DNA of 64,000 nt from Acidobacteriota bacterium. Lineage in GTDB: Bacteria; Acidobacteriota; Vicinamibacteria; Vicinamibacterales; UBA2999. Where the stretch lies: the NCBI GenBank assembly GCA_016192845.1, contig JACPTI010000091.1:11444-75443 (forward strand). Direction: 5' to 3'. Below, in pieces: positions 628 to 3,951 of this stretch. The notes beneath the pieces were generated by a model. That model made no database searches. It was not told the DNA's origin and saw only the letters and a program-made list of their open reading frames with translations. The position numbers were made by a program, and so were the translations under genes. Within the stretch, counting starts at the first letter, position 1, and every line of letters begins with the position of its first letter.

Positions 628-1920
628 CTACTGCACCGGCTCCTTTGTCGCCTCGACGAGCACCTTCCCGAGCGCCTCCGCCACGTGTGGATCGAACTGT
701 GATCCGCTGCAGCGCTCGATTTCACTGACCGCGAGTGCGGGCGGCAGCGGCGGGCGCTGCGTGTGCGGGTGCGTCATCGAGTCGTACGCGTCCGCGATCG
801 CCAGCATCCTGGCGCCGAGCGGAATCTGATCCCGCTTCAGGCCGCGCGGGTACCCGGTCCCGTCGAATGCCTCGTGATGGGTCAGAACCAGCCAAGGGCT
901 CGCCCTTGATATCCCGTACTCGTGAGGGAGAAGATGCAAGCCCTTGGCTGGTTGGCCAGTATCGGCTTGGCGCGCTTCGCGCGCCTAGGACCGCTATACG
1001 GCTTGTCACGGCGGGTACAAAATTCTCGTTTGGAGCCGTATAGCGGTCCAAATCGGCCGCCGCGGCGAACCGGCGTAGCTTCCTCACGAGATCATAGCCG
1101 AGCTGCGGGTGCGTCCGCATGACCGCCCACTCGTCGTCGTCGAGCGGCGCCGACTTGGCGAGGATCGCCGGGACGTCGAGCTTGCCGATGTCGTGCAGGA
1201 GGGCGCCGTGCTCGAGGGCGACCATCTCGCCGTTGCCCGGCAGCCCGAGCGCGTCGGCCAGCGCCAGCGTGAGGCGGGCGACGCGCATGGCATGGCCGCG
1301 GCCGTCCCGCTCGTGCAGCTCCAGCATCGAGATCAATCCGTCCAGCGCCGCGACGTGCGTCGTCAGCGCTTCGGCGAGGGCAGCGGCGAGCTCCGCGCGC
1401 CGCTTGCGCAGCCGATCCTGCAGCGCGTGATGGAGCGCTTCGTCGCCGCCGCCGGCGGCGTATCAGTCGCGCCAGCGAGGAGCGCCTCGAACAGCCTGGC
1501 GCGATCGAACGGCTTGAGCAGGTAGTCGACGACGTCGTTGCGGAGGCTGGAGGCGGCGGTCTCGGCGTCGCGGAGCGCCGTCGCCATGATGATGGCGGTC
1601 TGCGGATACTGCTCGCGCAGGCGCCACGCGAGCCAGACGCCGTCGCGCGCCACGAGACTGACGTCGCAGAGCGCGATGTCGCGCGGCGACTCCTGCATCG
1701 CTTCGAGCGCGTCCTCAACGCGCGCCGCCTCGTCGACCGCGTAGCCGAACGAATCGATCCATGCGGCCACGGTGCGCCGCAGCGACGGGTCGTCATCGAT
1801 GACGAGCACCGACTGCATCGAAACGGTCTCTCCCGGAGTGATCTCTTGTTCGATGGTAGGGAGAGCCGTGGCCGTGTGCAACGACGAAATGGAGTACTGA
1901 TGAGGCGTCAACGCCGACAA
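628..1920 (-). pseudogene. Response regulator REC + HD-GYP phosphodiesterase (RpfG-like), broken by one frameshift and a 160-nt insertion
   Basis: The REC domain is in ORF 1363..1920 (VLVIDDD...CDVSL...LLKPF). The HD-GYP N-half is in a second frame (ORF 722..1336: HAMRVARL..LLHDIGKL..THPQLG). The HD-GYP C-half is in a third frame (ORF 628..939: LTHHEAFDGTGYPRGL..IADAYDSM). The HD frame reads as a plausible linker helix (DEALHHALQDRLRKRRAEL...) back to a TGA at 1463-1465. The REC frame tail, by contrast, becomes Cys/Arg-rich nonsense. Confidence 0.75.
892..1051 (-). other. 160-nt highly structured insertion inside the HD-GYP domain (MITE-like or unknown structured element)
   Basis: Three perfect inverted repeats: 886-900/939-953 (15 bp), 969-975/979-985 (GGCGCGC-TTC-GCGCGCC) and 988-1003/1034-1049 (16 bp). 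The loops have lower G+C than the surroundings. Removing 892..1051 joins ...FAAAAD to LVLTHHEAFDGTGYP in frame. Confidence 0.5.
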
Positions 1921-3503: not shown

Positions 3504-3594
3504 AGGCTACCTACCAGCTACCAGCCACCGGCTACCAGCTACCGGCTACCGGCTACCAGCTACCAGCTACCAGCTACCAGCTACCAGCTACCAG

Positions 3595-3596
<2 letters not shown>
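3504..3596. repeat. Direct tandem heptamer array, CTACCAG x about 13 (variants CCACCGG, CTACCGG)
   Basis: Read directly. Units are in phase from 3511 to 3594. The array lies between the mreB stop (3484-3486) and the convergent ferredoxin stop (3595-3597). No complementary arm is present. Confidence 0.95.

Positions 3597-3951
<355 letters not shown>

Follow-up and report, generated by a model that had tools for sequence, protein, structure and literature searches.

A probable non-autonomous mobile element with hairpins at both ends in an RpfG-like pseudogene of a Vicinamibacterales bacterium, and its pairing with the target

The window considered in this study is a stretch of 64,000 nucleotides from contig JACPTI010000091.1 (positions 11,444 to 75,443; assembly GCA_016192845.1) of an Acidobacteriota bacterium belonging to the order Vicinamibacterales. 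At 628..1818 of its minus strand lies the gene of an RpfG-like response regulator with REC and HD-GYP domains (start codon ATG at 1818-1816, stop codon TAG at 630-628), which was delimited using the domains of its orthologues, alignments and synteny; within its HD-GYP domain a small hairpin-rich DNA element is situated, the main subject of this article. On the minus strand the HD-GYP frame can be followed as ...LRRFAAAAD to nt 1052, and it continues as LVLTHHEAFDGTGYPRGL... from nt 891 in a different frame. When the block 892-1051, which comprises 160 nt (3 × 53 + 1) and reads TTGG at either end, was deleted, a single open reading frame (ORF) was obtained across the junction. More than 2,000 relatives of the protein were found in a large protein collection, and the best 120 of them (P0001-P0120), about 340-350 aa long and up to 82% identical, contain the domains PF00072, PF13487 and PF01966. 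The joined product was aligned with 15 orthologues (63-82% identity, about 344 aa), and the junction (...AAD|LVL.HHE...) needed no gap, none of the 15 carrying an equivalent in-frame segment there, and a DNA alignment with two orthologue loci, which read GAC CTC GTC or GAC TTC GTC at this position, likewise spans the junction once the block is removed. Orthology is confirmed by synteny, since MreB and ferredoxin genes are common to the window and to these two loci (L086 and L087). A preliminary description of the locus, made from the sequence alone, had stated that exact removal of the 160 nt restores the HD-GYP consensus, and had recommended an alignment of orthologues; the statement is borne out by the alignment.

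Three perfect inverted repeats had also been listed in that description, and all of them were found again. On the minus strand, hairpin 1 (988..1049, arms 1034-1049 and 988-1003) consists of 16 bp with a 30-nt loop containing the conserved motif ACGnGAATTTTGTACyCGTTG, hairpin 2 (968..984, arms 968-974 and 978-984) is formed by 7 bp with a 3-nt loop, GGCGCGC GAA GCGCGCC, and hairpin 3 (886..953, arms 939-953 and 886-900) has 15 bp with a 38-nt loop (or 18 bp at 94%) and carries another conserved motif, GGGATATCAAGGGC, in the 3' part of the loop. Folded as RNA, the minus strand reaches -97.2 kcal/mol (z = -8.5, with none of 200 shuffled sequences as good), and the plus strand folded as DNA gives z = -7.7 against shuffled controls. 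The G+C content of the insert is 59.4%, compared with 66.8% in the window, which agrees with the lower value noted earlier, and no second copy was detected in the 64-kb window by blastn-short or nhmmer.

The core pattern of hairpin 1, CGCTATACGG N24-44 CCGTATAGCG, was searched for in a collection of species-representative genomes, and at least 85 stretches matching it were found in at least 16 assemblies. All but one of the matches come from Vicinamibacterales or Acidobacteriota metagenome-assembled genomes (MAGs), mostly from Vicinamibacterales, the exception being a chance palindrome in Catenulispora; in Vicinamibacterales, dozens of copies occur per genome, with at least 34 loci in the single fragmented MAG JBOGIR01. 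Viral contigs gave no match to the same pattern. The insert thus belongs to a dispersed repeat whose length is about 145-175 nt. About 74 full-length copies of approximately 140-190 nt were collected by BLAST and profile searches, and the element has no coding capacity. Searches of the literature by topic and by sequence string retrieved no account of this family, and both the repeat family and the pairing of the target into the terminal hairpins, described below, appear to be undescribed, while the single insertion in the window is an ordinary event.

In an alignment of 60 copies with their flanks, the information per column climbs from about 0.1 bit to above 1.1 bit at precisely position 1051 (TTGGACC...) and drops from 1.44 to 0.02 bit directly past 886 (...GGCTGGTT). 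These sharp steps define 886..1051 on the minus strand as the conserved unit of the family, which is 166 nt long in the window, has the structure TTGG-ACCGC...GGCTGG-TT and is matched by the full-length nhmmer profile from 1051 to 886. The 5' end ACCGCTATACGG is unrelated to the reverse complement of the 3' end, CCAGCCAAGGGC, and terminal inverted repeats are thus absent. The arms of hairpin 1 (ACCGCTATACGG/CCGTATAGCGGT) and hairpin 3 (CCAAGGGC/GCCCTTGG) have no sequence in common, both hairpins being terminal and not subterminal. The family is modular and includes solo hairpin-1 copies that stop at GGTCCTAG, a short form without most of hairpin 3, and a subfamily from JACOUA01, JACQTH01 and QHWF01 with another 3' module, ending CTAG|TT. 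Extra internal DNA was observed in two copies, namely an insert of about 45 nt in the hairpin-3 loop of L085 (3141-3330) and a duplicated hairpin 2 in L014 (104-280).

The secondary structure is conserved more strictly than chance would allow. In 72 copies, 97.2% of stem cells are paired, and compensatory, two-sided changes were recorded in 18 of the 35 pairs; none of 500 shuffles reached the observed level of pairing, and when the partners were slid by 1-3 columns only 26-39% remained paired. Pairing amounts to 99.3% in hairpin 1 (14 pairs, double changes in 6 of them), 97.6% in hairpin 2 (7 pairs) and 96% in hairpin 3 (13 pairs, double changes in 9). The two loop motifs are kept as sequence and not as pairs. 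In the window, GCCCTTG in the 3' arm of hairpin 3 has a possible alternative partner in a conserved CAAGGGC located 2 nt away within GGGATATCAAGGGC (893-908, 940-946). Across the family the long-range pairing of hairpin 3 co-varies, whereas the local GCCCTTG/CAAGGGC pairing does not, and for this reason GGGATATCAAGGGC is regarded as conserved in sequence; judging from its conservation, it may be a candidate protein-binding site.

Approximately 66 of 73 copies are intergenic, and apart from the window three copies interrupt genes, encoding an ADP-forming acyl-CoA synthetase (L012), an F420/NADP-type oxidoreductase (L020) and a Ser/Thr kinase (L017). The exact limits of the inserted DNA were derived from such cases. 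When the products of L012 and L020 were compared with solved structures, gap-free alignments were obtained only if 6 nt of the unit were kept, and the same is true of the window gene in comparison with its orthologues; hence every insertion has added 6 nt less than the unit, as was found in four events, i.e., in the window, in L012, in L020 and in a nested copy, L030. In L012, the Asn of the motif (L/V)TNAGGPG, present in 100 of 101 homologues, is restored only if the left TTGG and the right TC belong to the target, and the alternative assignment of target bases gives Ser instead of this conserved residue. In L020, the junction Arg (target codon CGG) occurs in 79 of 86 motif-bearing orthologues, including the 95%-identical P0241, and the DNA encoding P0241 (locus L089, Logan SRR22388275) represents an empty site, ...CACGT TCGG TT CGTAAAG... 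(...CACGTTCGGTTCGTAAAG...). The corresponding filled site reads ...CACGT TCGG [ACCGC...GGCTGG] TT CGGAAAG... (...CACGTTCGG[ACCGC...GGCTGG]TTCGGAAAG...). This pair places the insertion between GG and TT, and consequently both TTGG and TT beside the element belong to the target. The search for further copies and empty sites that the preliminary description had suggested gave no fewer than 85 loci and L089.

It follows from this arithmetic, from the empty/filled pair and from L012 that the DNA added in the window would be the 160 nt at 888..1047 of the minus strand, ACCGC...CTGG (ACCGCTATACGG...GCCCTTGGCTGG), with the target tetranucleotide TTGG (1048..1051) on its 5' side, as L012 and L020 indicate, and the target dinucleotide TT (886..887) on its 3' side, as the empty site L089 indicates. 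The ancestral sequence would be GCC GAT TTG GTT CTG (A D L V L), where GAT TTG GTT encodes the same protein as the GAT CTG GTT of the preliminary description. Judging by these comparisons, the window element is inserted into TTGG|TT within the HD-GYP domain, in accordance with a general rule: the element stands 3' of a (T/Y)(T/C)GG tetranucleotide and 5' of TT, with CTGG as its own right end. Beyond TTGG|TT, the flanks contain 0.02-0.3 bit per position, typically about 0.1, and the target therefore comprises only about 6 nt. The least conserved positions of the unit are the outer TT of TTGG (1.16 and 1.53 bit) and the right TT (1.32 and 1.44 bit), and the pairs between the right TT and AA are those most often broken in the stem of hairpin 3, as expected for target DNA that is chosen with some tolerance. 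In L030 (1-330, JBOGIR010000157), a reversed copy is nested in the linker of another copy, GGCGCGCC|AACCAG...GGTCCAA|ATACTGG; the family's own linker can therefore serve as a target, and this event fits the same rule.

Two other assignments of the junctions were considered and rejected. The whole right hexamer CTGGTT as the target, leaving TTGG...CTTGG as the element, fitted the window and the nested copy and was refuted by the Asn of L012 and by the Arg and the empty-site DNA of L020. A target site duplication of the outer TT dinucleotides was discarded because variation on the left is not accompanied by matching variation on the right.

The target bases are not simply adjacent to the hairpins but are drawn into them. 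The GG of the target (left TTGG) pairs with CC following the 3' arm of hairpin 1 and closes this hairpin, and the element's CTGG together with the target TT finds its complement in AACCAG, the 5' foot of hairpin 3, where AA is the partner of TT. The preliminary description had suggested pairing between element and target, and this is confirmed, as GGTT of the hairpin-3 arm and GG of the left TTGG are derived from the target or matched to it and are paired internally. Of 72 copies, 70 carry the same dinucleotide at the left and the right junction (GG/GG in 67, AG/AG in 2, GA/GA in 1), the exceptions being L068, with AG on the left and GG on the right, and L085; moreover, six copies of the JACOUA/JACQTH/QHWF subfamily have GG on the left and AG (CTAG) on the right. 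Since L068 and this subfamily are unequal at the two junctions, the dinucleotides are probably not a true duplication of the target, nor a recombination core common to both sides. When the junctions vary, the feet vary with them: in L042, TTGA|...CTGA|TC is accompanied by the internal feet TC and GATC, and in the AG subfamily, TTAG|...CTAG|TT by CT and AACT. On the strand with TTGG...CTGG, G-T pairs are more frequent than A-C pairs (37 versus 22), and this mild excess fits the folding of that strand alone. So far as can be judged from the aligned copies, the left site behaves as a part of the target and the right site as the element's own, each pairing with its own internal bases.

In our opinion, 888-1047 is probably an undescribed non-autonomous mobile element of Vicinamibacterales with hairpins at both ends, which would follow a pairing logic like that of IS200/IS605 elements and be mobilised in trans. 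Its target and its ends would be recognised by pairing of short internal feet with the cleavage and target sites on one folded DNA strand, as they are in IS200/IS605 elements of the "peel-and-paste" kind and in small elements derived from them. An enzyme whose gene lies elsewhere in the genome would catalyse the reaction in trans, and the element would have no role in RpfG expression, the gene being merely disrupted. Single-strand transposition of the HUH type in trans is the step that we infer from the target pairing. By analogy, the IS200/IS605 type appears to be the best-fitting model of how the element works, and it is a resemblance in working that is meant, not membership in this group.

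The resemblance extends to several particulars. Like IS200/IS605 elements, the family has hairpins at both ends, lacks terminal inverted repeats and probably also lacks a true target duplication. In IS608, TnpA binds subterminal hairpins, insertion occurs 3' of TTAC, which remains in the flank, TCAA belongs to the element, and both cleavage sites are recognised through complementary guide bases located at the feet of the hairpins, on their 5' side (PMC3201880). Similarly, the present element is inserted 3' of a short oligonucleotide that is not its own (TTGG, corresponding to TTAC), has its own right-end tetranucleotide (CTGG, corresponding to TCAA), which pairs 5' of the right hairpin (CCAG, corresponding to the right guide GR), and shows a specificity that tracks complementary internal bases (PMC3201880). 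Distinct from IS200/IS605 are the 3' flank TT, which is also preferred and paired, and the third, central hairpin; in addition, no TnpA or TnpB partner was found in the 101 loci examined and the window.

A number of facts weigh against this interpretation. Hairpins 1 and 3 are unrelated, while in IS608 the two end hairpins share a binding site on one TnpA dimer; they abut the cleavage sites or ends, while those of IS608 are subterminal, 19 and 10 nt away; and the bases pairing with the target GG are located 3' of hairpin 1, while the left guide GL of IS608 lies on the 5' side. A crude regular-expression motif scan of the 101 loci and the window, covering about 0.7 Mb and not whole genomes, revealed no Y1/HUH-like ORF. 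Among the 101 loci there was also no longer element bounded by ACCGCTATACGG... and ...CTTGGCTGG, a result that leaves the idea of the preliminary description that the insert is a remnant of a larger element without support. Filled and empty sites could be compared as DNA for one pair, the other three events having been deduced from protein colinearity or family consensus; the coordinated changes of dinucleotides and feet represent only two independent lineages; and the GG repeated at both ends of 67 of the 72 copies would equally result from a 2-bp duplication or from a recombination core common to both sides. The solo hairpin-1 copy L029 and the truncated copy L037 were inspected as potential termini of a longer element; neither adjoins a transposase gene. 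An integron attC-like structure with a G|TT crossover was rejected, without a formal test, because an R''/R' box layout is missing from the stem and the left junction reads GG|AC.

A bolder version of the proposal, which we put forward only tentatively, is that these repeats may represent a new class of guide-carrying non-autonomous transposons. Their two feet, of which CC follows hairpin 1 and AACCAG precedes hairpin 3, would recognise the NNGG|TT target and their own right end by Watson-Crick pairing that extends the terminal hairpins, and the choice of target would be written in the element and change with the feet, for which the GA and AG variants are examples. Such elements would depend on a single-stranded DNA transposase or recombinase, encoded elsewhere, unlinked to known insertion sequence (IS) families and recognising two unrelated hairpins.

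One copy of the repeat was itself found to be interrupted. At L048:1313-3191 (JACQTK010000187), between its hairpins 1 and 2, there is an IS of the IS110/IS1111 family, which encodes a 398-aa transposase (PF01548 and PF02371), possesses 13-bp subterminal inverted repeats, ATATGGAATGACC/GGTCATTCCATAT, and has ends (ACAATATGGAATGACC...GGTCATTCCATATCAG) unrelated to those of the repeat family. Since this IS has its own subterminal repeats and splits the repeat at one point, the repeat is its landing site, and for the same reasons the idea that the repeat is a deletion derivative of the IS, prompted by the position of the IS between two repeat halves, was abandoned. Repetitive extragenic palindromic sequences (REPs) are landing sites of IS621.

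Several rival explanations have to be considered. Host-maintained palindrome mosaics similar to REPs and bacterial interspersed mosaic elements (BIMEs), spread by a domesticated single-copy Y1 enzyme of the REP-associated tyrosine transposase (RAYT) type and having a cellular role in supercoiling, at mRNA ends or in protein binding, would account for the predominance of intergenic copies, the modular build with solo hairpin-1, short and alternative 3' forms, the strong conservation of loop motifs and stems, and the IS110-family element inside one copy. With REPs, BIMEs and REPINs the family shares short, abundant, mostly intergenic palindromes in mosaic combinations, presumably moved in trans by an enzyme present once per genome, and the use as a landing site by an IS110-family element. 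The REP, as described, is a palindrome of 20-40 nt with a conserved GTAG or CGTC head, and a REPIN is an inverted doublet of one REP, whereas the heads here are TTGG/GGACC without a GTAG or CGTC tag, and the unit contains three different palindromes and is not a doublet of one (PMC3733652). Furthermore, the insertion junctions are defined and the target is readable, which is not so in REPs and BIMEs, no RAYT-like gene flanked by repeats was found in the 101 loci (whole genomes being outside this search), and the copies enter and destroy genes; we therefore consider this explanation unlikely. A classical miniature inverted-repeat transposable element (MITE), for which a DDE transposase would choose TTGGTT by preference and duplicate 2 bp (GG) there, is suggested by GG at both junctions in most copies, by the parallel change in three variants and by the net 160 nt, compatible with 158 nt plus a 2-nt duplication. 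The family also resembles the Correia, ERIC and RPE MITEs in its length of about 150 nt, copy number, sharp ends, non-coding nature and ability to land in genes. These, nevertheless, have terminal inverted repeats and true duplications (TA for Correia), whereas here ACCGCTATACGG... and ...CCCTTGGCT, the two ends, are not inverted repeats of one another, duplication is not obligatory, the duplication rule being broken by L068 and the six JACOUA/JACQTH/QHWF copies, and a duplication leaves the internal complementarity unexplained. RPEs are tolerated in frame, and the window element, instead, breaks the frame. A DDE-type origin is accordingly quite improbable, and of the MITE proposed in the preliminary description there remains the small non-autonomous mobile element, without the inverted ends and the constant junction tetranucleotides of a classical MITE. 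Still somewhat less credit can be given to a non-autonomous element moved by a DEDD recombinase of the IS110/IS1111 type, with GG as a core common to donor and target and the hairpins perhaps acting as a guide similar to a bridge RNA. The 2-nt repeat at both junctions, the absence of inverted ends, a sequence-specific target and the highly structured non-coding body do recall IS110/IS1111, and one family-bearing genome contains an IS110-family gene; but the IS in question, that of L048, has its own repeats and unrelated ends and uses the repeat as a target, and the dinucleotides at the two junctions can differ. Bridge-RNA elements have targets of 11-14 nt, in contrast to the approximately 6 nt found here.

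To each of the two remaining explanations we assign a negligible probability. According to one of them, raised in part in the preliminary description, the insert is a structured RNA or resembles an intron, being excised from the transcript or acting in cis, with RpfG still being made; the exact restoration of frame and consensus and the very stable predicted fold are in its favour. However, the gene carries three further lesions on the minus strand, established by comparison with orthologues: a TGA stop at 1463..1465 in place of the TGG codon for the conserved Trp of ...RDWH... (DNA and protein alignments), a 1-nt deletion (-1 frameshift) in the REC-to-HD linker within 1468..1480, the exact base being ambiguous, and an in-frame loss of one codon at 1169..1170 (DVP-AIL versus DVPxAIL in 15 of 15 orthologues). 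Removal of the 160 nt at the RNA level would therefore not rescue the protein, and, on the evidence of its sequence, the gene of this RpfG-like cyclic di-GMP (c-di-GMP) phosphodiesterase is now a pseudogene, whichever lesion came first. The Rfam search that had been recommended, made for 600-1400 of the window with E up to 10, returned only sub-threshold miRNA hairpin models (23.6 bits for the best, with a gathering score of 87), and three simple hairpins in 160 nt match no Rfam family, introns included. In addition, the copies are mostly intergenic and inserted in either orientation, and empty and filled alleles differ in DNA. With flanking genes called by codon-phase G+C, their orientations relative to the element were (+,+) in 15 cases, (-,-) in 18, divergent in 9 and convergent in 6; the element's orientation is, hence, unrelated to transcription, which counts against a strand-specific cis-acting RNA such as a terminator, riboswitch or intron. 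The other explanation is that a repeat was chimerically inserted into the contig during assembly, and, indeed, the window looks metagenome-type, and repeats can be misassembled. Against such an artefact, the same gene continues on both flanks with no bases lost or gained, and the junctions follow the TTGG|...CTGG|TT rule of about 70 other loci and of the independent empty/filled pair.

Some observations on the neighbourhood of the gene may be added. In L086 (2116-3945) and L087, a gene of a 609-aa BipA/TypA GTPase is located between the RpfG-like gene and a small mreB-adjacent ORF. It is absent from 1830-2400 of the window, where the interval is only about 580 nt, and this part of the window was therefore rearranged or partly deleted. 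In the region between the MreB and ferredoxin genes (3511-3597), the heptamer CTACCAG is repeated in tandem 12.4 times with 92% matches; its unit is similar to the AACCAG foot of the element, and heptamer arrays also occur beside repeat copies in other MAGs (CTTCCAA in L059, a GGTTCGG-like unit in L023). When metagenomes were scanned for the window gene in uninterrupted form (GCCGATYTGGTTCTGACCCATCA), 12 unrelated loci were obtained, none of them the allele sought. The 23-nt sequence GCCGATCTGGTTCTGACCCATCA is identical in these 12 unrelated metagenome contigs (L090-L101), where it has no relation to the RpfG-like gene and is situated in a conserved stretch of another gene (...GCCGATCTGGTTCTGACCCATCAG/A...).

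Vicinamibacterales are abundant, mostly uncultured bacteria of soil and groundwater, and their mobile DNA is, to our knowledge, almost unstudied. The family considered here is numerous, as the loci of JBOGIR01 alone demonstrate, and inactivates genes; it will fragment short-read assemblies and mislead gene callers, as in the window, where the RpfG-like gene is split into ORF fragments, and in practice the c-di-GMP phosphodiesterase gene should be annotated as a pseudogene. Pairing-specified targeting is what made IS608 and, later, guided transposon systems re-programmable, and the present family offers a natural case of a tiny element whose target appears to be set by pairing with the feet of its own hairpins. 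Identification of the enzyme would distinguish a divergent relative of IS200/IS605 or RAYT from something new.

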